A stretch of DNA of 64,000 nucleotides from a virus (lineage: Duplodnaviria; Caudoviricetes). How positions within the stretch are numbered: position 1 is the stretch's first letter; each line of letters begins with the position of its first letter. A program made the translations under genes and the position numbers. Location of the stretch: IMG/VR virus record IMGVR_UViG_3300044557_000104, positions 54,437-118,436 of that record; one strand, given 5' to 3'. This document shows, piece after piece, positions 14,001 through 50,325 of this stretch. A model generated the notes under the pieces. The model saw only the letters and a program-made list of their open reading frames with translations. It was not told where the DNA came from and made no database searches.

Positions 14001-16032
14001 CCAATACTGTATATTACCCGGAGGAACTTCCGCGGGAACACACACAATAACTCAGACTGTAACTCTTCCTACTGTTAGCAGTTCTAATACAGATAACTTA
14101 CGTTTCCGTGGAGAAACTAATAATTATACAGGTGATGTTATAATATCACATGTTAAACTTGAATTAGGATCAGAAGCAACACCATGGAATGCTAGTGAGT
14201 CTGATAATGAGGCTAATGCTCAAATATCGGGAATTCCTAATATAATCTCTCCCTTAACTGATGCTGATGATCTTTTATGGAAATCTTATGGTAATGCTGA
14301 ATTATATGGATTGAATAGTTATGATACTACACCCACTGCACAAACTATAGATGCTAGTTGGCCCTCTGATAAATATATTGTTCACGCATATAATGACTGG
14401 AGTGCTATGCGTTATACTAGTCCAAGTGGAGAGGTATTTAAAGCAGGTCAAACTTATACCGTTGCATTTAGAGCTAGAACTTATACAGGAACAAAAACTA
14501 CTGGTCTTACTTTTAGTGTATATGCACTCAGTACATCTACTGAAATAGCTCATATAATTAATCCAATAATTACTCCACAGTTTACATGGTATCAGGTATC
14601 ATTTACTTTAACCTCTGATATTCCTATTGATAATTTTAGAATTGAGCCTCACGGAGACTGGAGTGATACTGGTGGTTCTATATATTTATGTGATATGTCT
14701 ATAATTAAAGGAAATATTGTTTATGGTGTTGATTTGAGGTTTCCCTTTCAGATAACTTCACAAAATCCAACAGATATATCGGTAACACCTGTTACAATAG
14801 ATACACGTAATTTATCTAGTGGAAGAACCTTAATAATTACAACTGAGGTTTTATATAATAATAATTATAGTTCCATTGGGGGAACTATACAAGTACAAAT
14901 TGGGGACACAATAAAAAGCATACTTGCACAAAAATATTCTATTATAAATGGGTATGAAACATTTACTTATAGTATAGACTGGAATGATACTTATCAAGTA
15001 GGAAGTAATGTTCCTGTAACTTTACTTTTTTCGTCTTTGGAATCAGGAAATATTTTTGTAAACTATGTGAATGCATATTCTGTATCAACCACACTAGATA
15101 CTAATGCCCCTATTGCAGACTCGTATGGATATATTACTCCATATGGTGAGCTTAGACTAGGATATTCAACTACTAGCACTAATGCTGATAATAACAATAT
15201 GTTGTCTGATACTAGTACACTAAACTATTATGGGGGAATACTGAAACTAAATAGTACTAATTATGATACTATATCTGCTAAAGGTATTGACTATAGGACT
15301 GATGTAATATATGGTGGGTATACAACTAACGAGTATAATGGTGATACCTTCTACTCATCCTCTATAGATGCTTCAGGTTTATCCTATGTTAAAACCTCAG
15401 ATAATCCTAATATTACCTCTAAACAAGTTGCATGGGGCTGGGATGAAATTGCTAATAGTTCTCCTTCTGGTATTGGCATGGGCAAGGCTGAGGGAGCATA
15501 TTCATGGTTTGACACTAGAGACGGATTTGATGTATATCCTAATTTAATATCAAACAGTTCTTTCCTTAATAAGATAACCAATTGGAATATAAACAATGGA
15601 AAATTCTATTGGACAGGTAGTTCATTAAGTGATGGATGCTTTTGTGTAGAGTTTAATAATGGAGGAGGAGGAGATGATATGTGGCAGCATATTTATACTT
15701 TTCCTTCTGCCGGACATTATCTAACCTTATCATTTTGGGCTTTTTGCTGGGACTCTGACACATCAAACTATGGTAGCCACGGAATGCAATTAATTTTTGA
15801 ACAGTCTAATGGAAATAGTAATGCAGGTGCAACATTCAAAATGTATAAGCAGCCAGCAGCCCATAAGTGGACTAGATATAGTTTTTCCCCAATAGAGATA
15901 ACGAGTACAATGACATCAAATTTAGATCATTTATCTCTTATGTTCCATACTGATAACGCTAATGGTCATTGGACATTTGCTAGACCTATGTTAAATATAG
16001 GTAAGGATCCTAAACCATATAAATTTACTTAG
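8011..16032 (+). CDS. Giant mosaic central tail spike/fibre, probable receptor-binding protein
   Basis: 2673 aa; baseplate-type N-terminus, SKIANLAV 10-aa repeats, collagen-like GxDG tracts, repeated YLWTKT domains, several carbohydrate-binding-like modules ending KLEKGSVATPW. Confidence 0.8.
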   Translation: MANVIIPKSENPLRMQASLGGKNVFRSTSGLDGNSYLLSGTVSKVYYQKGTLDFKLDGSNIPVQVVEGDDGTFSAPIPVDFFGENSEGQTYGHYRPIQTGSKIVVAYLSGKLNNPIVIGVYPSDSASYELVGGISRNTQDDTQEDVQDEVLSEKHVYPSGQILYRAGSGDIAESLQGKSFRLIQQDSMGYMDDIWYTYDALGLFNDGNNDPITSKQTLAGSWLLVHEDNNQANDEADGHMTRFYVDPHGKFQMVFGNYNDASNLAVLEGSKDAGFTLTKFYDSNEPTDSSKDYVMMTLGDENKSIKFTASSEAESADQSSTLEVKSDDVYVNGKKLSDYINGVTNIDDALKNSDEYNSTKDKVNQATNDISELSKQTSEAGIVASQAAEQASQAGEAAAQAGVDAKAAGQAALDGANDIKNKIIYYTSISPESDGDNYIPGKFIHLTTTTLIDEGIIKNAYIENEAVDNSKIANLAVDSGKITDLAVTTSKIANLAVNSAQIADLAVTDAKVGTLSFDHMIGQTLDASQINVVNLKGESIEAGTIRADKLIINSLGEITSNLGSVTNGEINAGTDSSSSVVIKNLPADNPNEYTPQKKSDLKHQIAVVESQANAAISYGNSTGNDVTDVTKARDALLSGTSELLADMTATTSANADDISKLIKAVSDAVTAFQNTVNSSLSAKIGSTADGKNAIYTGTKAPASPHENDMWLKDNGDGTVNIQIYGSGAWYTPAQQAIQQVADKVDTLPKSYFSISMPTGTDYKDGDLWYKTTTDKDTNRIVYTAYKWNHDTNTWEPMLDQNSSKNYVGSEPASPLEGDFWMDNGVLKQYQSGTWTTIPTKGDDGVAGTTYYTHIAYANSADGKTDFSTTAFTGSIYIGLLSDTTQEDSTDPTKYTWSKMRGDDGTNGRDGIEGKPGADGKSTYVHFAYANSADGKTDFNVEYFSGALYVGTLTDTTQADSNTYTDYTWARLKGADGEAGANGNGIASTLIAYQVSTEGTDVPNGTWVDTIPTIPSGQYLWTRTTITLDDGTAKVAYSVSRDGKDGSDGKDGVAGKDGVGLSSTTVTYQASANGNTAPTGTWTTTVPNVPKGQYLWTKTVWAYSDSTSETGYSVAYVGTDGNDGTDGVAGKDGVGIKTTTITYAVSSSGTTAPTENWTATIPVANPGQYVWTKTVWTYTDNTSETGYSVAKYGTNGAKGADGSDGKDGVGVSGSTVTYQVSDNGTTVPAGDWVTAIPTVPAGKFLWTKTVFKYTDNTNSTAYSVSSAGTNGTNGKDGSDGKDGRGIKSSSIAYQLSNSGVTIPTGTWLSAPAEQTNAQPYLWTQTTVSYTDNTNSTSYSVSRKGDTGATGAAGKTYYTWIKYATDSSGSNISDSPTGMTYMGLAYNKETATESSTATDYTWSLIKGADGKPGTNGTNGKDGKTYYFHIAYAQSADGKTGFTITPDTKVSYNYMGTYTDTTATGSTDTTKYTWVAMFDSTKKRNFTTQPTTPYAVGDTWMQSGATYFCTTARNSGAFTASDWTMQQLTIQSLDSSIKEGLSGNNILLDTQYFNNNGIWLPFSGTASNGEYHFVSAIPTTDLDFLQQAVSLESGTTYTFSFYAKGTTKVSCFIYNTGTTSDYADNFHKFSLTSSYQRFTMTFTTGKPMAEQIQRVLFRKSSTDNEAIDITIKEMKLEKGSVATPWCLSQSEITTKTGVYKGVTLNDSGLTATAGSTTVAMNSTDGFLIKKNSGQVFHVDTAGNLTMQGDITAGNISGVNFTGNTLNLNTTLAIGANGVLSANGGKTVINNSGLTIKDGGLSVEDSKGNQTTYVGSDGTFVTNKGVFSGDVTTNKLILKGNDSDINMGGKFHVDNEGNLTAKSATLADGTINSSTINGSEFLVGNEYYSPLEGSTHNALSATNIGLRTGTSFSRKTNLATVSNSINDNYLLKTGNPIRFVGKGEADNGSDTSATSSTKLYQVVNSNVYGKLVTISATYTISNAIPSNGRIQLQQFGDPNWFQYCILPGGTSAGTHTITQTVTLPTVSSSNTDNLRFRGETNNYTGDVIISHVKLELGSEATPWNASESDNEANAQISGIPNIISPLTDADDLLWKSYGNAELYGLNSYDTTPTAQTIDASWPSDKYIVHAYNDWSAMRYTSPSGEVFKAGQTYTVAFRARTYTGTKTTGLTFSVYALSTSTEIAHIINPIITPQFTWYQVSFTLTSDIPIDNFRIEPHGDWSDTGGSIYLCDMSIIKGNIVYGVDLRFPFQITSQNPTDISVTPVTIDTRNLSSGRTLIITTEVLYNNNYSSIGGTIQVQIGDTIKSILAQKYSIINGYETFTYSIDWNDTYQVGSNVPVTLLFSSLESGNIFVNYVNAYSVSTTLDTNAPIADSYGYITPYGELRLGYSTTSTNADNNNMLSDTSTLNYYGGILKLNSTNYDTISAKGIDYRTDVIYGGYTTNEYNGDTFYSSSIDASGLSYVKTSDNPNITSKQVAWGWDEIANSSPSGIGMGKAEGAYSWFDTRDGFDVYPNLISNSSFLNKITNWNINNGKFYWTGSSLSDGCFCVEFNNGGGGDDMWQHIYTFPSAGHYLTLSFWAFCWDSDTSNYGSHGMQLIFEQSNGNSNAGATFKMYKQPAAHKWTRYSFSPIEITSTMTSNLDHLSLMFHTDNANGHWTFARPMLNIGKDPKPYKFT
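9406..9550 (+). repeat. ~30-nt (10-aa) coding tandem repeats (AVxxxKIANL)
   Basis: About 4.5 imperfect copies, e.g. aagattgctaatctagctgtt / aaaattgctaacttagctgtt. Confidence 0.75.
10530..12430 (+). repeat. Antireceptor-type domain repeats (4x YxHIAYA-S-DG type, 5x TITY-S-SG-T-P-G-W...YLWTKT type) separated by short collagen-like linkers
   Basis: Directly visible in the translation. Confidence 0.8.
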
Positions 16033-22752: not shown

Positions 22753-22943
22753 TTGGCATTAGATCAATGGGAAGATAAAGAACTGATTACAAAGGCTAAA
22801 ATGAATGCAATGGTGGACGCCATTAATGAAAATACCACTAGAATTGCTCAGGTACCTGACGATACTATTAATTTCATATCGTCACCCAATCACAGTATGA
22901 TGCACTAACTGACAAGTCCGGCGTCTATTTTATTGAGGGGTGA
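22753..22943 (+). pseudogene. Small tail-fibre-associated ORF broken by a 1-nt frameshift (absent from ORF track)
   Basis: TTG 22753 gives MALDQWEDKELITKAKMN...INF, stop at 22908; -1 frame continues HIVTQSQYDALTDKSGVYFIEG* to 22943. Confidence 0.6.
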
Positions 22944-22947
22944 GCGA

Positions 22948-23451
22948 ATGACAACAATAAATGGTAGAGTGTGTGTTGTTAATGGCGTGGCAGTAGACAA
23001 GGTGTTCAGCAATGGCAAGCAAGTTTATGGACGTAACTTACTATTAGACACGCAGAGCTTTGAAAGTAACTGGTCATGGAACAGTATCGAGCACATTTTT
23101 GCTAATGGATTTCTCACGCTATCTAGTACGAACAATGGCAGAATGTATCAAGCTATAGCCAGTGGAAATCCTAATGGTAAGACTGTCTCGGTATCTTTCA
23201 ATGCAAAAATTAGTGCCGATTGTGACAGCCAGTCAGTACAAGTAAATGTTGGCCCTTATGACGCCAATAAATTGATCAATATAACTAGTAAAGATTCCCA
23301 ACTCTATAAAGTAGAAAATTGGCAATGGGCAAGCCAAACTAGAACGTTCAGTTTATATGTTATTAATGGAAAAGTTGATATATCCAATCTGAAGTTGGAG
23401 TATGGTGTAGCTACACCTTGGACGCCTGCACCAGAAGACGTATTAAAATAG
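22948..23451 (+). CDS. Small carbohydrate-binding-like tail protein (temperate-phage type)
   Basis: MTTINGR..VVNG..VDKVFSNG.QVYGRNLL...KLE.G.ATPWTPAPED; ATG 22948 has RBS GAGGGG. Confidence 0.65.
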   Translation: MTTINGRVCVVNGVAVDKVFSNGKQVYGRNLLLDTQSFESNWSWNSIEHIFANGFLTLSSTNNGRMYQAIASGNPNGKTVSVSFNAKISADCDSQSVQVNVGPYDANKLINITSKDSQLYKVENWQWASQTRTFSLYVINGKVDISNLKLEYGVATPWTPAPEDVLK

Positions 23452-23462
23452 GAAGTAGACAA

Positions 23463-23515
23463 TTGAACAAGCACAATTTAAAGGCACCCATCTTAACGGT
23501 GGGCGCCCTTTTTAT
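23463..23515 (+). pseudogene. Probable remnant of a temperate-phage endolysin signal-peptide start; overlaps a terminator-like hairpin (23481-23513)
   Basis: TTG start gives MNKHNLKAPILTVGALF; recalled similarity to L. plantarum prophage lysin N-termini; cut at TTAT by the IS-derived element. Confidence 0.45.
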
Positions 23516-23774
23516 AAAGAAAAGTTGAGAAAACACGTTACTTTAGTTGCGTGATAAATCAACTAGTAGTATACTAAGAACCATAAAGACATTGAGTGAC
23601 CTTAGATGCGAAAACCAAGTATCTTAATAAGTTGCTTAAAAGTCTTTAAGTAAACTAATATGGGCTGGGACAGCCCTTAGTAAATAGCTGTAACCTCTAC
23701 CTAGAGTTAGTAATAACCTAGGCAAGTATGCAGTGTTCCTAGAAGCATGGGAATTTATTCCCAGAGTAGTTCAC
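23516..23774 (+). mobile_element. Non-autonomous IS200/IS605-derived element (copy 1; omegaRNA only, no gene)
   Basis: Preceded by TTAT; left-end hairpin CACG-ttactttagttg-CGTG; right end GAAG-hairpin-GAGTAGTTCAC; homologous to 50051-50305 and to the tnpB 3' region. Confidence 0.8.
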
Positions 23775-23794
23775 GACACCCAAGTAATTGTAGA
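23660..23794 (+). ncRNA. Orphan TnpB omegaRNA, copy 1 (guide from 23775: GACACCCAAGTAATTGTAGA)
   Basis: 29-nt identity (ATGGGCTGGGACAGCCCTTAGTAAATAGC) with the tnpB-adjacent scaffold; compensatory stems. Confidence 0.7.
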
Positions 23795-23855
23795 TAATCC
23801 AACAGATGTAACTGTAGATAATACTAATGATTCTACTGGGGTAACAGCTAAATAA
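23775..23855 (+). pseudogene. Orphan 3' gene fragment (DTQVIVDNPTDVTVDNTNDSTGVTAK*)
   Basis: No start; resembles C-terminus of 50342..50851 (IEDPTGVAAVATDDGAKVTAK*); followed by a terminator. Confidence 0.55.
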
Positions 23856-23861
23856 ATGATT

Positions 23862-23899
23862 AATACCCACCTAATCAATGGTGGGTATTTTCTATATTA
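23862..23899 (+). terminator. Intrinsic terminator plus CTATATTA motif
   Basis: AATACCCACC/GGTGGGTATT perfect stem, T tract, then CTATATTA at 23892. Confidence 0.8.
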
Positions 23900-23992
23900 A
23901 TAAGTAGCGAGAATGCCTTAGCGAAACTAATGGAATACATGAATGCTAATGGTAGGTCAATCAACAACACAAACTATTTAAAAATAATATCG

Positions 23993-24001
23993 TGTTATAA
24001 T
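23993..24001 (+). promoter_or_regulatory. Extended -10 (TGTTATAAT) upstream of tnpB; contains the TTAT motif
   Basis: Consensus TGnTATAAT about 90 nt upstream of the tnpB ATG. Confidence 0.65.
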
Positions 24002-25367
24002 AGAATATGAGGAGTTACCTATAACATTGTTACCCTCTATAGGGTACAATGTGTACATAAACACAATAATTCTTGAAAAGAGGTGGCACAGCATGACTTT
24101 AAAAGGAGTTAAACTAAGAATATATCCTAATAAAGAGCAACAGTTAAAAATTAAACTTAATTTTGGGTATAACAGATTCGTTTGGAATCAAATGTTAAAT
24201 ATGATGATTACTAGATATAAGAATAATCCAGAATTAAGATTTCCAAGTGCTTTCACCCTTAACTATTTGTTACCAGCAATGAAGGAAGAGTATCCTTGGT
24301 TAAAAGATGCAGAGAGTCAGAGTTTGCAACAAACCTGTAAAGACTTAGTAGAATCCTATAAGAAGTTCTTTAAATTACATCAAGGCTTTCCTAAATTTAA
24401 ATCTCGTAAGTATCCTAAGAAAAGCTACCGGTCTACTACGCGTATTAGGTTAATTGATAACCATCATATTAGATTACCTAAACTTGATATTGTATATTTT
24501 AAATCTGGAAGATACCCTAAAGGTAAAATCAAGAATGTAACTATCAGATTGTCTTCAACTGGTAAGTATTATGCAGTTTTACTAGTTGATACAGATATTA
24601 ATAGTCTTCCTAAAACTACTGAATCTGTAGGAATTGATATGGGAGTAGCTGATCTAATGGTTACTAGTGATGGTACCAAATACCCCACGATTAGATTTGA
24701 TAAAATCCTAAGTAAAAAGAAACACTATTGGGAGAAACGGTTAGCACGTAGGAGACTACAAGCACAAGCTCAAATAGCTTGGGATAAGCATAATAAAGTA
24801 CTGGAACCACGTGAGTTATCAGACTTTAATAATTATCTAAAAGCTAAGTGCATGGTAGCTAAGTACAATGAAAAGATTGCTAATCAAAGAAAAGATTATC
24901 TCCATAAACTAACAAAGTCTCTAGTAGAACAATATGATGTGATTAAGATTGAAGATTTGAAAACCAAAAATCTTCTTAAAAATCATAAATTATCTAGAGC
25001 AATTGCTAATCAGTCATGGAGAGAATTACGTACTCAGTTAGAATATAAATGTGAATGGTATGGAAAACAATTAGTCATTGTTAACCCCCGTAAAACATCA
25101 CAAATTTGTTCTAATTGTGGTTATGATGATGGTAAACATACATTAGACATTAGACAGTGGGCTTGTCCACAATGTCATACTCATCATGATAGAGACATCA
25201 ACGCTGCTAAGAATATCTTAGCTAGTGAATAACTAATAAAGGACTAACATGGGCTGGGACAGCCCTTAGTAAATAGCCATAACCTCTACTTGATTATCTT
25301 AGATATTTAAGCAAGTATGTGGTGTTCCTAGAAACTCAATAAAATAATAAAGCAATGAGTAGTCCAT
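23999..25367 (+). mobile_element. tnpA-less IS200/IS605 (IS1341-like) element with decayed ends
   Basis: tnpB plus omegaRNA; ends GAGTAGTCCAT; left boundary placed at TTAT 23995-23998 by analogy with the other copies. Confidence 0.7.
24093..25232 (+). CDS. tnpB: RNA-guided endonuclease TnpB (IS200/IS605 family)
   Basis: KLRIYPN N-terminal HTH; RuvC GIDMG, IEDL, DRDINAA; Zn finger CSNC/CPQC; ATG 24093 has RBS GAGGTG. Confidence 0.95.
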   Translation: MTLKGVKLRIYPNKEQQLKIKLNFGYNRFVWNQMLNMMITRYKNNPELRFPSAFTLNYLLPAMKEEYPWLKDAESQSLQQTCKDLVESYKKFFKLHQGFPKFKSRKYPKKSYRSTTRIRLIDNHHIRLPKLDIVYFKSGRYPKGKIKNVTIRLSSTGKYYAVLLVDTDINSLPKTTESVGIDMGVADLMVTSDGTKYPTIRFDKILSKKKHYWEKRLARRRLQAQAQIAWDKHNKVLEPRELSDFNNYLKAKCMVAKYNEKIANQRKDYLHKLTKSLVEQYDVIKIEDLKTKNLLKNHKLSRAIANQSWRELRTQLEYKCEWYGKQLVIVNPRKTSQICSNCGYDDGKHTLDIRQWACPQCHTHHDRDINAAKNILASE

Positions 25368-25387
25368 AATAGAATATAGATAGTAAG
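25249..25387 (+). ncRNA. TnpB omegaRNA, copy 2 (guide from 25368: AATAGAATATAGATAGTAAG)
   Basis: Immediately 3' of tnpB; GGGCTG/CAGCCC hairpin; GGGACA complementary to TGTTCC (pseudoknot or alternative pairing). Confidence 0.8.
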
Positions 25388-25400
25388 GAGGCTACAAAGT

Positions 25401-25931
25401 TTGGCAATTGAAACAAACGTAGGGCACATTACACAAGCAATTAATTTTAGTGCCCATAAAGACCTGTTCCTAGAATTAGGAAAACCTACTGATTGGACAG
25501 ACCCTAAAAATCCAGATAATGAAAATGCAACAACTACGGATTTAGCAGATTCACAAGCATTTATTAAGATAAATTCTGTGTATTTAGTAGCAGAAAGTGA
25601 TGTTACTGATAGTACTGAGGTGGCTGGTGATTCCTATATTATATATAAAGGAAAGCATTGGTTAATTAGTACCACGGATAAGGCAATTGCAGATAACGCA
25701 TGTTATGTATTGGTAGAAGGAACATTGGGTGTTAGTGCGCTTGAACCGTTTAAGTTTACACAGATTGGTGTTCGTCAAGGAACTGTATTTGCAGACTCTG
25801 TTAAAAATAACACGGTTGCTAAGTCTAGTGATGTTACTACTAAAGGTAGCTTATTGTTCTATGAAAATAGAATGTTAGAAACCTATACAGATGCTACTGC
25901 TAAAGATATTAAATATCTAATGAGATTTTAG
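25401..25931 (+). CDS. Baseplate structural protein
   Basis: MAIETN..H, LGKPTDW..P..P motifs; precedes the DUF4815-type gene as in Herelleviridae. Confidence 0.7.
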   Translation: MAIETNVGHITQAINFSAHKDLFLELGKPTDWTDPKNPDNENATTTDLADSQAFIKINSVYLVAESDVTDSTEVAGDSYIIYKGKHWLISTTDKAIADNACYVLVEGTLGVSALEPFKFTQIGVRQGTVFADSVKNNTVAKSSDVTTKGSLLFYENRMLETYTDATAKDIKYLMRF

Positions 25932-25947
25932 AAAGTGAGGGACATGA

Positions 25948-28900
25948 ATGCCAGTCTATGATGACTCAGCAATAAATAAATTTGATCCCAAAAAGCAATA
26001 TGATAAGATTCTATTTAATGCAGGACGACCTGTATTTAACTTTGAAGTGAACGAACTTCAATCAATGGAACAATACCAACTTGAAATGCTGGGAGATACA
26101 ATTTTTCAAGAAGGTGCTATTATCTCTGGAATGGATATTATTCCACAACCAGACAATGAAGGCACTGATACTGGTTTACCTAACTCATTTAGTGTAGCCA
26201 GCTTAGATACATCTTTTGGATCAGTTAAGACAGATACATATACTAATGATAGTAAATTAACCTTTACTTCTATTAGTAACTTGTCTACTGATTACCCCGC
26301 CCTATCATTTAATGGGACAGTTACCAAAGGTGTATATTCTACTATGAGTTTTACTGTTAAGAAAACCTCTGGTACTTTATCTAAGATGAGTCTTGGGTAC
26401 CCAATGAATATGTTAACACCTATCACTTATACTATTGATGGTGCAAAAATTGCTACTGCTATTAATGATATGAGCGGTGATCCAATTGTAAATTCAGATG
26501 GTGCTCAGGTTAATTTAAATGATGGTAAAGACCATAAAATTGTTGTAACGTTTAAAACACTAGATTCTGGTTCCCCTAGTTTTACATTACATTTTAACCC
26601 CAATTATAATGCTCTAACTACATCAGTTGGTTTAGACATTACTGGACTTTATATCCAAGATGGTAAGGAAGCTACTGATTGGGTTATTAATGTTAATGAT
26701 ACTGGAACAACATCAAGTGTTGATCGTGTAAAGAATTATAGTGTTACATCAGGTACTATCTGGTTAAATGGTGCTATACGTAACTTTGCAACTCAAGATG
26801 TATCTATTAAGGGTACTGGTACTGAAAATATTGGTGTTACTCTAACTGAAAATAAGGTTACATCAGCAGATGATCCAGACCTAGTTGACGACACAGAAAA
26901 CTCATTGACAAATGGTATGAGTGGTGCAGATCGTGTTAAGTATAATGTTGACCTTACTTATAATGATGATACTGCAACAACTATCTTTGTTTTTCAAGAT
27001 AATAAGATTAACCCAGATGCAGTTAAGCCAGATTACTCTAACCTAGCTCCTATCTTAGCTAAGCGTACATTTGATCAGTCTGGTTCATTCCGTACCTCTG
27101 GATTTAATGCTACTCCAACAGATTACAAGTTGGACTCAAGTAAAATTAAACTTAATATTGATGCCGGTCAAGCCTATGTTCGTGGTTACTCAATCAGTAC
27201 CTCAAGTACTACTGGCGTGTTGCTAGATAAAGCTAGTTCAACAGATACCTCTACTAACGAAGGTATTATTTACAATAATGGTAGTGGTGATATTACTTTA
27301 GCTAATCAACCAGTACAAAAGATTACTAATATTACTGCTAATGTGGAAGGTACTAATAACTCAGTTAGTCGTTCTACTTCTGGCAATACAGATACTTTTA
27401 CTACTAATAATGCTTATCGAATTGTTAGTGTAAAACAAGGTTCTATAACCTATGCGGAAGGTACTGATTTTACCCGTGCTGGTAATACTATTATCTGGGG
27501 TGCTGATTCTGCTGGTAACATTTTACCTAATGCAACTATGCCAACGGCCGGTACATCATACTCAGTTGTTTATGACTACAACTATAATATGGTCGAAGGT
27601 ACAGATTATGCAGTTAAGACAGCAGATGAAATTACTAGTATTGATATTGATACCCAAAAGGGTGTTAAGCCAATTAATGGTAGTGTCATTAGTGTAACCT
27701 ATATCTACTTCTTAGCTCGGATTGATATGATTATGATTACCTCGGATCAAGCTAACCCATTTAAGGTTATTAAAGGTGATCCAATGCCACTTGCTACTGC
27801 TACTCCACCAGTTGTTAAGGATAATTATTCACTGGAATTGGGTTATGTATTGATCTACCCTAACTCAGATAAAGCAGTCTTCACCATGCAAACAATCACA
27901 CGGATTCCATTCTCAGGATTGCAAGCATGGAACACTCGTATCTCTAACCTAGAGTACAATGTTTCTGTATCCGCATTAGCTGATAGTGTTGAGAAGTCAG
28001 AAGATCCAATTACTATTCGCGATGCCTTTGCTGATGCGTTTAACAACTTGAACTATGCTAACTCAACTCATGATGGATTTAATGTAGCTTATGATCCAGA
28101 ATATGGTGAAATTACAATCCCACCTAAGTCATATGCTGATTTAGTTCCAACACTGAATGAGTCTAAATCTGATGTCAATGTTAGTGGTAACCTAGTCACT
28201 GCTCCCTATACAGAAGAGAAGTCCATTGGTCAAGATCTAATTACGGGAACTACTAATGTTAATGAATACCAAATTTTTAATGTTAATGGTACCCTATCAA
28301 TTGACCCCGCTAGTGATAATTGGATTGACACAAAGTCAACTACTGTATACGCTAATGGTGGTAGCAAGTCAATCACTGCCAGTCGTTGGTGGATGCACTT
28401 GGGTGCTAATAATGAATCAAGTAGTATTCAGAATACTCTTAATGAGTTACAAGGTGTCCAAGGAATTGACTATAATAGCTGGTCAGGTTCACAAGCAGCA
28501 CAAAATAACTGGTCATCAACGCAAACTGGATATATCATTTCTGATGGTGGTTCTAAGACAGTTGAGTCAGCTATTGAATATATGCGTCAACGAACAATTA
28601 CTTTTGAAGCTAAAAACTTCTTACCATATGAAGATGGATTTGAAATTACTATTGAAGGCACTAGTGTTATTAATCCAACACCAGCATCATCTACTTATAA
28701 AGGTAGTTTAGCAAATAGTTTCAAAGCGGATTCTGCTGGTACTATTAAGGGGTCATTTGACATTCCTGCTGGTGTTATCCAATGTGGTAATCGTTCTATT
28801 AAGATTGAGAACTCTAATGGTAGTTTGGCCAGCGCTAGTTACCAAGCCTATGGTACTATGAAAGATGTTCAATCAATTATTAATAAAACCACAGTTAGTG

Positions 28901-41786: not shown

Positions 41787-42923
41787 ATGTATATAAAAGC
41801 AAGAACAGTTAGATTATACCCTAATGTTCATATGACTAAGGAATTAGATAGGTTGTGTGATTATAGAAGATACTGCTGGAATTTAGGGTTAGAAGTATGG
41901 AACAACATGTATGATCTACACTTGGTAGATAAAGATAATAATCCTAGTCCTAGTAAAAGAAGGGTTAGGGATATTATTGTTAGCCAAAAACAGGACTGGC
42001 AATATGCACTATCTTCTAGGGTGCTTCAACAAGGGATAGAAGATTTAGGAAACGCGTGGGAACACTTTTTCAAAAAGGATCAATCAGATTGGGGAAAGCC
42101 CCAATTTAAATCTAAAAGAGCATCCAGACAAGGTTTTAAGTCTGATAGAATTAAGTTCGTCAAAGGGAAACTTAGACTAGATAAACCTAGAGATAATAAA
42201 TCTGCTTGGTATGATATTAGGTTAAAGGGCAATCTTTTAGACTATGACTATGGAACTGTTAGTATATACAGGGTAAATGGTAACTATTACGCTTCTATTC
42301 CTTATAAAATAGAGGATATAAAAGATAAACCTAAAACTAGCAAAAATACTGCTGTAGATGTTAATGTAGGACATTTTAACTATACAGATGGTTCTTTAAA
42401 TGTATTACCAGACAAATTAGCTAATCTATATAGTAGGATCAAACATTATCAAAAAATGTTATCACGTAAGAAACCCGGAAGTATAAATTATCAAGAAGTG
42501 AGAACCAAACTTCAACGTGATTATACTAAGGTGACTAACTTACAATATGATATTATTCATAAATTTACTACAAAACTAGTATCTAACTATGACACTATAG
42601 TTATTGAAGACTTAGATGTTAAACATATGAAGATGAGCCATGTAGCTTCCAAAGGGTTACAACGTTCTCAATTTGGATATTTTAAACAAGTTCTACAGTA
42701 CAAATGTGATTGGTATGGCAAAAACCTAGTAATTGCAGACAGATTATATCCTAGCACTCAAAGATGTAGTGAGTGTGGTAATGTTAAACAAGGTGATGAT
42801 AGAATAACCCTTCAAGGAAATAGGAAGCATCATACTAAACATAATGAATATATTTGTTATAATTGTGGGGCTATTCTAGATAGAGATGAAAACGCAGTAC
42901 AAAACTTATTACAGTTAATTTAA
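41787..42923 (+). CDS. tnpB: RNA-guided endonuclease TnpB (IS607-like)
   Basis: VRLYPN...RYCWN; RuvC AVDVN, IEDL, DRDENA; YPSTQRCSEC...CYNC. Confidence 0.9.
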   Translation: MYIKARTVRLYPNVHMTKELDRLCDYRRYCWNLGLEVWNNMYDLHLVDKDNNPSPSKRRVRDIIVSQKQDWQYALSSRVLQQGIEDLGNAWEHFFKKDQSDWGKPQFKSKRASRQGFKSDRIKFVKGKLRLDKPRDNKSAWYDIRLKGNLLDYDYGTVSIYRVNGNYYASIPYKIEDIKDKPKTSKNTAVDVNVGHFNYTDGSLNVLPDKLANLYSRIKHYQKMLSRKKPGSINYQEVRTKLQRDYTKVTNLQYDIIHKFTTKLVSNYDTIVIEDLDVKHMKMSHVASKGLQRSQFGYFKQVLQYKCDWYGKNLVIADRLYPSTQRCSECGNVKQGDDRITLQGNRKHHTKHNEYICYNCGAILDRDENAVQNLLQLI

Positions 42924-50050: not shown

Positions 50051-50305
50051 AAGAAGAGGGTTGAGAGAGCATATTACTTTGATTACGTGGTGAATCAGCT
50101 AGTGATACACTAAGAACCCTAAAGAAATAAAGTAACATTAGATATGAAAACCAAGTATCCTAATAAGTTACTCTAATATCTTTAAACCAATATGGGCTGG
50201 GACAGCCCTTAGTAAATAGCCATAACCTCTATACTTCTAAATATTATAGAAGTACAAGTATGTGGTGTTCCTAAAAGCCCATTACTTTAGTAATGAGTAG
50301 TCCAC
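50051..50305 (+). mobile_element. Non-autonomous IS200/IS605-derived element (copy 3; omegaRNA only)
   Basis: Follows TTAT 50047-50050 within CTATATTAT; colinear with 23516-23774; ends GAGTAGTCCAC. Confidence 0.8.
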
Positions 50306-50325
50306 AAGAAGAGACAAAAATAGAT
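50192..50325 (+). ncRNA. Orphan TnpB omegaRNA, copy 3 (guide from 50306: AAGAAGAGACAAAAATAGAT)
   Basis: 40-nt identity with the tnpB-adjacent scaffold 5' part; variable hairpin keeps its pairing. Confidence 0.7.

Follow-up and report, generated by a model that had tools for sequence, protein, structure and literature searches.

The window analysed here, a stretch of 64,000 nt from the record of a Lactobacillus myophage-like virus, contains a tnpB gene, copy A, that encodes a protein of 379 aa (24093–25232, plus strand, as are all features of the window below unless stated otherwise). The protein scored above cut-off for the Pfam families HTH_OrfB_IS605 (PF12323, HTH), OrfB_IS605 (PF01385, OrfB/RuvC) and Cas12f1-like TNB (PF07282, zinc-ribbon TNB), and it matched ISDra2 TnpB with an E value of 1.5e-57. 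The RuvC triad of copy A is intact: D182, E287 and the DRD at 366–368 fall in the ISDra2 DVG, TEHL and DRDEN columns, which bears out the claim of an earlier note, made from the window alone, that this TnpB retains its RuvC site. The ISDra2 residue numbers used are in part those given in PMC13507860.

Downstream of tnpB lies the conserved part of an omegaRNA scaffold (25240–25367), delimited in an alignment of 28 family members. The scaffold is kept in these members through ...TAGTYCAY and gives way to unrelated sequence beyond, and compensatory changes were found in 22 of the 32 predicted omegaRNA pairs. The end of scaffold conservation and the covarying pairs together make the start of the guide at 25368 secure. 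The terminal hairpin is degenerate in copy A, with about 5 bp and a long AT-rich loop, as compared with the 8-bp stem of the family. The guide, taken as 20 nt, occupies 25368–25387. An Rfam search of the window and of the locus of a second full copy, D, matched no family. No Y1 (HUH) TnpA transposase (PF01797) was found in the 118-kb record (87% complete); the relative CL1 carries tnpA.

An internal promoter-like site, with a weak −35 followed by TACAAT, was located at 24021–24050 in a block that hardly differs between copies A and D. In relatives, the corresponding site reads TTGCAT, 17 nt, and TACAAT or TATAAT. Upstream of tnpB, a block of ~30 nt (GGGTACAATGTGTACATAAACACAATAA, window 24036–24072) is 100% identical in A and D, compared with only 79% for the genes; a promoter and leader belonging to the element itself are probably located in it.

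The element occupies the promoter region of a baseplate operon. A terminator-like hairpin at 23862–23889, present also at the empty site of a related phage (L097/L098, see below), is predicted to insulate the native promoter from upstream transcription. The extended −10 box of this promoter, TGTTATAAT (23993–24001), is identical in the L097/L098 empty alleles and reads TGATATAAT in relatives of 80% identity (L099/L100). A consensus promoter scan did not return the 23993–24001 site, with no −35 reaching 4/6. The first gene 3′ of the element encodes a baseplate wedge protein (BW3TFN, 25401–25931; PF25691, E 5e-35), and its ribosome-binding site, AAGGAGG (25385–25391), covers guide positions 18–20 and beyond. 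As the wedge ribosome-binding site overlaps the distal guide in this way, omegaRNA maturation and translation may compete. No terminator-like site was predicted between the promoter and 25401, so that transcription of the baseplate operon probably passes through tnpB and the omegaRNA, in line with the read-through into the baseplate genes proposed earlier. In that case the native promoter would drive tnpB, the omegaRNA and, via read-through, the baseplate genes.

Empty alleles and the left junction

The decamer AATAGAATAT is found at 23999–24008, directly 3′ of TTAT (23995–23998, within the extended −10 box), and a second time at 25368–25377, where it opens the guide and adjoins the omegaRNA 3′ end, ...GAGTAGTCCAT. 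The coordinates given in the earlier note for TTAT with its decamer and for the guide copy proved correct; the exact direct repeat is slightly longer, comprising the 12 nt of ATAATAGAATAT (23997–24008 and 25366–25377). Pairing indeed ends after 10 nt, as the note had it: guide position 11 is the first mismatch to the left copy (G vs. A), and the self-match is confined to the seed.

Contigs looked up from homologues of the wedge protein provided the empty site. In L097/L098, which represent one phage of 90–95% relatedness, with 90% protein identity and flanks of ~90–93%, the element is absent, and ...ATATCGTGTTATAAT is followed by the guide, the ribosome-binding site and the wedge gene with its TTG start. 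All 20 nt of the guide match this site perfectly after TTAT. The BLAST arms against L097 (left, 23775–24008; right, 25366–26500) overlap by 12 nt and enclose an insert of 1369 bp. The empty site thus identifies the decamer as native to the promoter, TTAT as the TAM and the guide as ordinary right flank, derived from the promoter and leader. The promoter of L099/L100 is equal in length, has no TTAT and carries a different downstream heptamer, which indicates that the empty state is ancestral and the promoter conserved.

A further empty site was obtained for solo1, an omegaRNA-only element of the same family, whose guide target in L097 lies directly after TTAT with 2 mismatches, at positions 11 and 14. 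With TTAT followed by guide sequence at both empty sites, that of copy A in L097/L098 and that of solo1 in L097, the proposed TAM (23995–23998) is now supported by uninterrupted target DNA. The left ends of the family mostly lie ~10 nt 3′ of TTAT or CTAT.

Scanning IMG/VR for the empty-site string returned 6 unrelated matches only, and relatives of the baseplate protein in IMG/VR reached only 42–44% identity. No empty site of the second omegaRNA-only element, solo2, was found in the IMG/VR or JGI metagenome scans, and an exact-protein look-up 3′ of solo2 gave the same filled allele only. The JGI metagenome scan contained no filled left junction with any 10-nt seed, and neither there nor in IMG/VR did the scans yield an orthologous filled allele that varied in sequence. 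Contigs from sequencing runs were broken at repeats, none of them spanning the element. A Logan contig (L096) of a phage whose wedge protein is 97% identical begins exactly at the 12-mer ATAATAGAATAT, where filled and empty alleles would branch the assembly graph, an observation that is suggestive only.

Compared with the empty allele, copy A is identical at 24/24 positions up to 24008, the end of the left copy of the repeat, and unrelated thereafter. Compared with the left ends of relatives, 23–28 of 35 positions agree from 24002 on, and 3–9 of 17 before 24002. The 7-nt patch AGAATAT (24002–24008) can be aligned with the native promoter and equally with the left-end hairpin of the relatives, in its 3′ arm, and the adjoining positions 24009–24025 are a left-end remnant, homologous to the GATGAATTGCCTATTGC found just 3′ of the hairpin in an alignment with L101, L102, L104 and L106. 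A canonical left end consists of a linker, a hairpin of the CACGTTCTTTTAAGGACGTG type, GATGAATTGCCTATTGC and a conserved block with the internal promoter, and it is kept by the nearest TnpB relatives (81–84% aa identity). The hairpin is present in L101, L102, L104, L106, CL1 and both solo elements; it is absent from copy A, as is the linker. The alignment limits at 24002 and 24008 place a crossover within AGAATAT, where native target DNA was joined to what had been the hairpin's 3′ arm. Truncated at its 5′ end, copy A could no longer be mobilised by TnpA.

These results favour what the earlier note had offered as its alternative, namely that recombination restored the −10/+1 sequence, since the left copy lies at a recombinant joint and the left end is truncated. 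They weaken the note's use of the match as a sign of autorepression: the decamer is native to the empty site, the guide is simply right flank, and the joint explains the left copy. Other origins of the repeat were considered and rejected. For mis-cleavage by TnpA at a second TAM at the repeat end, the repeat ends (ATAT, AGAG, ACTA and TGAT) differ from each other and are not TAM-like, and fill-in of a staggered TnpB cut would duplicate positions ~15–21, not 1–10.

Chance identity between two AT-rich 10-mers has to be weighed in a genome of this composition, in which TATAAT-like strings are frequent (227 TATAAT in the record). The decamer occurs 4 times in the 64,000-nt window vs. 0.8 expected; for the 118-kb record the count is 6, where only 1.0–1.6 occurrences are expected in the 237 kb of both strands. 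The two copies moreover coincide exactly with the two predefined junctions of the element, and the homology arms overlap by 12 bp at the empty allele. Own guide and own left flank match over at least 10 nt in 3 of the 28 elements, as against 5/754 mismatched pairs in a permutation; over at least 8 nt, 6 of the 28 match, with 2.5% of shuffled pairs doing so. The probability of a fortuitous match appears negligible, and we regard it as effectively refuted by the empty-site comparison.

Related elements and further seed sites

Repeats that start exactly at the right-end boundary occur in independent relatives as well: at least 41 nt in L016 (2869–2950 and 4262–4340) and 26 nt in L017/L028 (L017 2884–2912 and 4269–4296). 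The left copies of L016 and L017 restore the 3′ end of the interrupted ORF; both follow a TAM-like tetramer (CTGT and GTAT, respectively) and carry a mismatch to the guide at position 2 or 1. These TAM-proximal mismatches look like avoidance of self-recognition. The L016 repeat also duplicates a diverged terminator. No match of guide and left flank was found in copy D, solo1, CL1, 521B and most others of the 28 elements. Judged from sequence, the pattern fits surviving junctions that repair the damage of insertion while avoiding self-cleavage, and not a conserved operator. The L016 and L017 repeats exceed the TnpB cut distance, and one mechanism may not cover all cases. The copy A locus belongs to a known family and shows an unusual, recurrent junction architecture.

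One omegaRNA family is represented in the record by four members, the full copies A and D and the omegaRNA-only elements solo1 and solo2. The count of four family members in the earlier note calls for correction: within the window there are copy A, the two omegaRNA-only elements and an unrelated tnpB, with copy D outside it. The unrelated gene (41787–42923) belongs to a separate family with 28% identity. Copy D is encoded on the minus strand and shares 79% DNA identity with A.

Solo1 (23516–23774, its guide beginning at 23775) has an intact left end and no tnpB. In solo2 (50051–50305) the 8 nt that follow TTAT are the same as those with which its guide opens (50051–50058 vs. 50306–50313); this match could be due to chance between two purine-rich sequences and is weaker evidence. 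The left-end hairpins of both elements are intact, and each left end contains a sigma-70-like hexamer pair, read by eye as TTGCGT, 17 nt, TATACT and TTACGT, 17 nt, TACACT. The solo elements could feed extra guides to TnpB in trans. Solo1 also forms a mosaic joint (window 22753–23860 vs. L097 1016–2941): on its right lies the 3′ end of an XkdX-like gene, intact in L097, and on its left a different gene module that has a terminator of its own. It appears to have served as a recombination point in a swap of tail modules. In L104 (2763–2780) the guide, AAAGAAAAGGTTGA..., resembles the start of the solo1 left end, AAAGAAAAGTTGAG..., a likeness that could reflect tandem insertion beside a right end or a preference for purine-rich targets.

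Copies A and D share the 14-mer TATAATAGAATATG, which in D comprises CTAT and the decamer, although the guide of D differs. The promoter of copy D reads TGCTATAAT, followed by AGAATATG as in A. In D, the 14-mer and the shared internal block are set apart by 98 nt that bear no relation to A. We counted 3 occurrences of TATAATAGAATAT in the record vs. at most 0.055 expected, and 6 of TGNTATAATAG; the excess may partly reflect a promoter class. By our own estimate, the extra identity of A and D would arise by chance in ~1–2% of cases, which is suggestive, not decisive. A third TTAT followed by AATAGAATAT lies at 14934–14947 on the minus strand, antisense inside an ORF of 2673 aa. At this site and at genome position 21793 (plus strand), both within coding regions, AATAGAATAT is followed by TTTT; one of the pair comes after TTAT and the other after TTATA, and the common stretch is at least 13 nt.

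The 98-nt insert of copy D lies between the promoter and a truncated left end (L002 2830–2945, minus strand). A tRNA was considered for it on account of a cloverleaf-like fold and rejected: ARAGORN predicted none, the fold z-score was −0.36 and no Rfam family matched. The protein encoded beside copy D had no homologue in the protein database, and our searches did not find an empty allele of D. A related 140-kb phage carries at the same place (L108 2569–4141) a different TnpB, of 462 aa, with its own 3′ RNA region. This element ends at TTTTAT directly before the right flank of copy D, with homology starting exactly at the guide, so that two TnpB families occupy one site.

Origin and possible use of the self-match

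We estimate at about 0.68 the probability that the left 10-nt match is a recombination scar that rebuilt the native promoter, and not an installed operator; the figure applies jointly to this explanation and to the description of copy A as a decayed, tnpA-less, 5′-truncated tnpB–omegaRNA cassette of the IS200/IS605 family. Copy A sits at a TTAT inside the −10 box of a conserved baseplate-wedge promoter, with a guide that represents the native DNA formerly 3′ of that TTAT. Its joint combines native DNA up to 24008 with element DNA, beginning at the 3′ foot of the lost hairpin, from 24002, the two overlapping by 7 nt. It is most likely the product of microhomology-mediated repair or recombination that involved an empty-type target and a filled allele. 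TnpB may have provided the trigger by cleaving the empty site, with the filled template being copied; another possible route is unequal exchange and subsequent excision of the intact copy. The joint reconstitutes the −10/+1 sequence exactly.

On the same reading, the guide would serve mainly for homing on the empty sites of related phages, which it matches perfectly after TTAT. During co-infection TnpB-A could cut the empty alleles, and repair would copy the element in, a form of homing as in PMC10055086. The 10-nt match in cis would be too short for cutting, which would leave the filled genome immune, and promoter binding by TnpB, if any, would be a side effect of the architecture. Homing is supported by the perfect fit of the guide to relatives' empty sites, by the intact nuclease triad and by the restriction of the cis match to 10 nt. 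A one-off scar leaves the 14-mer shared by A and D unexplained, unless the left end of D derives from that of A or both promoters belong to one class.

The complete identity of A and D over TATAATAGAATATG, in elements that are 79% identical overall, is what one would expect if the left end inherently began with AATAGAATATG, as it does in D, and had been inserted in the ordinary manner 3′ of TTAT, led by homology or by a target preference, in a promoter with these bases already present; a 12-nt identity between circle junction and target would then allow homology-assisted integration. We consider this improbable, since the closest relatives start differently and carry the hairpin that both A and D lack, D has 98 nt unrelated to A after the 14-mer, the decamer is native to the baseplate promoter lineage, and no other element with an upstream block of the A/D type was found in IMG/VR. 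The position of TAM and seed on the non-target strand, over the −10 box, favours another explanation, in which TnpB with the copy A omegaRNA would bind TTAT and the 10-nt seed without cutting and so throttle tnpB and the baseplate genes, possibly also the promoter of copy D. Such binding has precedents, as the earlier note had held: the RuvC-active ISDge10 TnpB, which has TTAT as its TAM, engages DNA but makes no breaks when its guide is 10 nt long (PMC13507860), TldRs use guides of 9–11 nt at promoters, with a seed of ~6 nt (PMC10705468), and Cas9 with tracr-L represses its own promoter via an 11-bp match (bioRxiv 10.1101/2020.05.21.102756). The CTAT and decamer at the copy D promoter, the third site at 14934–14947 and the over-representation of the motif also agree with it.

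Against autorepression stands that native promoter sequence at a recombinant joint accounts fully for the match, and that promoter function constrains the same bases, so that their conservation is not assignable to an operator. The self-match is absent from D, solo1 and most relatives, and where long self-matches occur in relatives they carry TAM-proximal mismatches. The seed has 1 G/C in 10, and weaker action at low GC is described in PMC13507860; the hairpin next to the guide is degenerate in copy A; and the ISDge10 precedent was obtained with truncated guides and not with a long one mismatched in its distal part. On balance autorepression is physically plausible but appears unlikely. Doubtful to a slightly greater degree is the combined proposal that one omegaRNA works in two modes, cutting empty sites over a 20-nt match and binding YTAT plus seed at the A and D promoters without cutting, by which it would throttle tnpB and the baseplate operon read through from it. 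If true, such a dual-mode, phage-borne TnpB would be a natural parallel to tracr-L/Cas9 that originated in the scar of an insertion.

The locus is a natural case of filled and empty alleles, in which a TnpB/omegaRNA cassette has become fixed in an essential phage promoter and the promoter was kept. If the junction came from TnpB-triggered microhomology repair, repeats of part of the protospacer would be a readable trace left by TnpB cassettes that spread in phages independently of a transposase, and such repair would offer a route to the loss of ends and to domestication.

Comparison with known systems

Copy A shares with the homing TnpB–omegaRNA systems of the IS200/IS605 family (Meers et al., PMC10055086; ISDra2 structures 8EXA and 8H1J) the set of domains and the RuvC triad. 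As in those elements, the omegaRNA scaffold lies at the right end and the guide comes from the right flank, insertion is 3′ of a 4-nt TAM, and the empty site consists of TAM and guide. In contrast to canonical members, copy A has no tnpA in its record and has lost the left-end hairpin, and it is flanked by a 12-bp direct repeat, whereas canonical IS200/IS605 elements make no target duplication. It also differs in residing in a lytic-type myophage replicon, with the −10 box of a promoter as its site.

ISDge10 (PMC13507860) resembles copy A in its TTAT TAM, its nuclease-active TnpB and pairing over 10 nt. Its use is, however, engineered, with truncated guides and activator fusions in human cells, whereas copy A has a long guide and an AT-rich seed and is described from sequence only. 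TldRs (PMC10705468) have in common with copy A the TnpB fold, an omegaRNA-like guide and promoter DNA adjacent to a TAM. They have lost the RuvC site and have guides fixed on host promoters, in contrast to copy A, where D/E/D is retained and transposon-flank DNA supplies the guide. With tracr-L/Cas9 (bioRxiv 10.1101/2020.05.21.102756) it shares a cleavage-competent nuclease and a partial match with PAM or TAM at the nuclease's own promoter. The tracr-L match is conserved across strains and was demonstrated by mutagenesis, whereas that of copy A is known from a single locus and is structural in origin. The architecture of copy A automatically puts a TAM and a sub-cleavage seed on its own promoter, which would be raw material for TldR-like repressors.

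Phages also carry free-standing homing endonuclease genes, such as the seg and mob genes of T4. Like these, copy A is a nuclease cassette between genes that would cut the cognate site of relatives lacking it while its carrier is immune. Unlike the T4-type homing genes, it would recognise its target by RNA guidance, and its carrier would be immune because most of the protospacer no longer adjoins the TAM.
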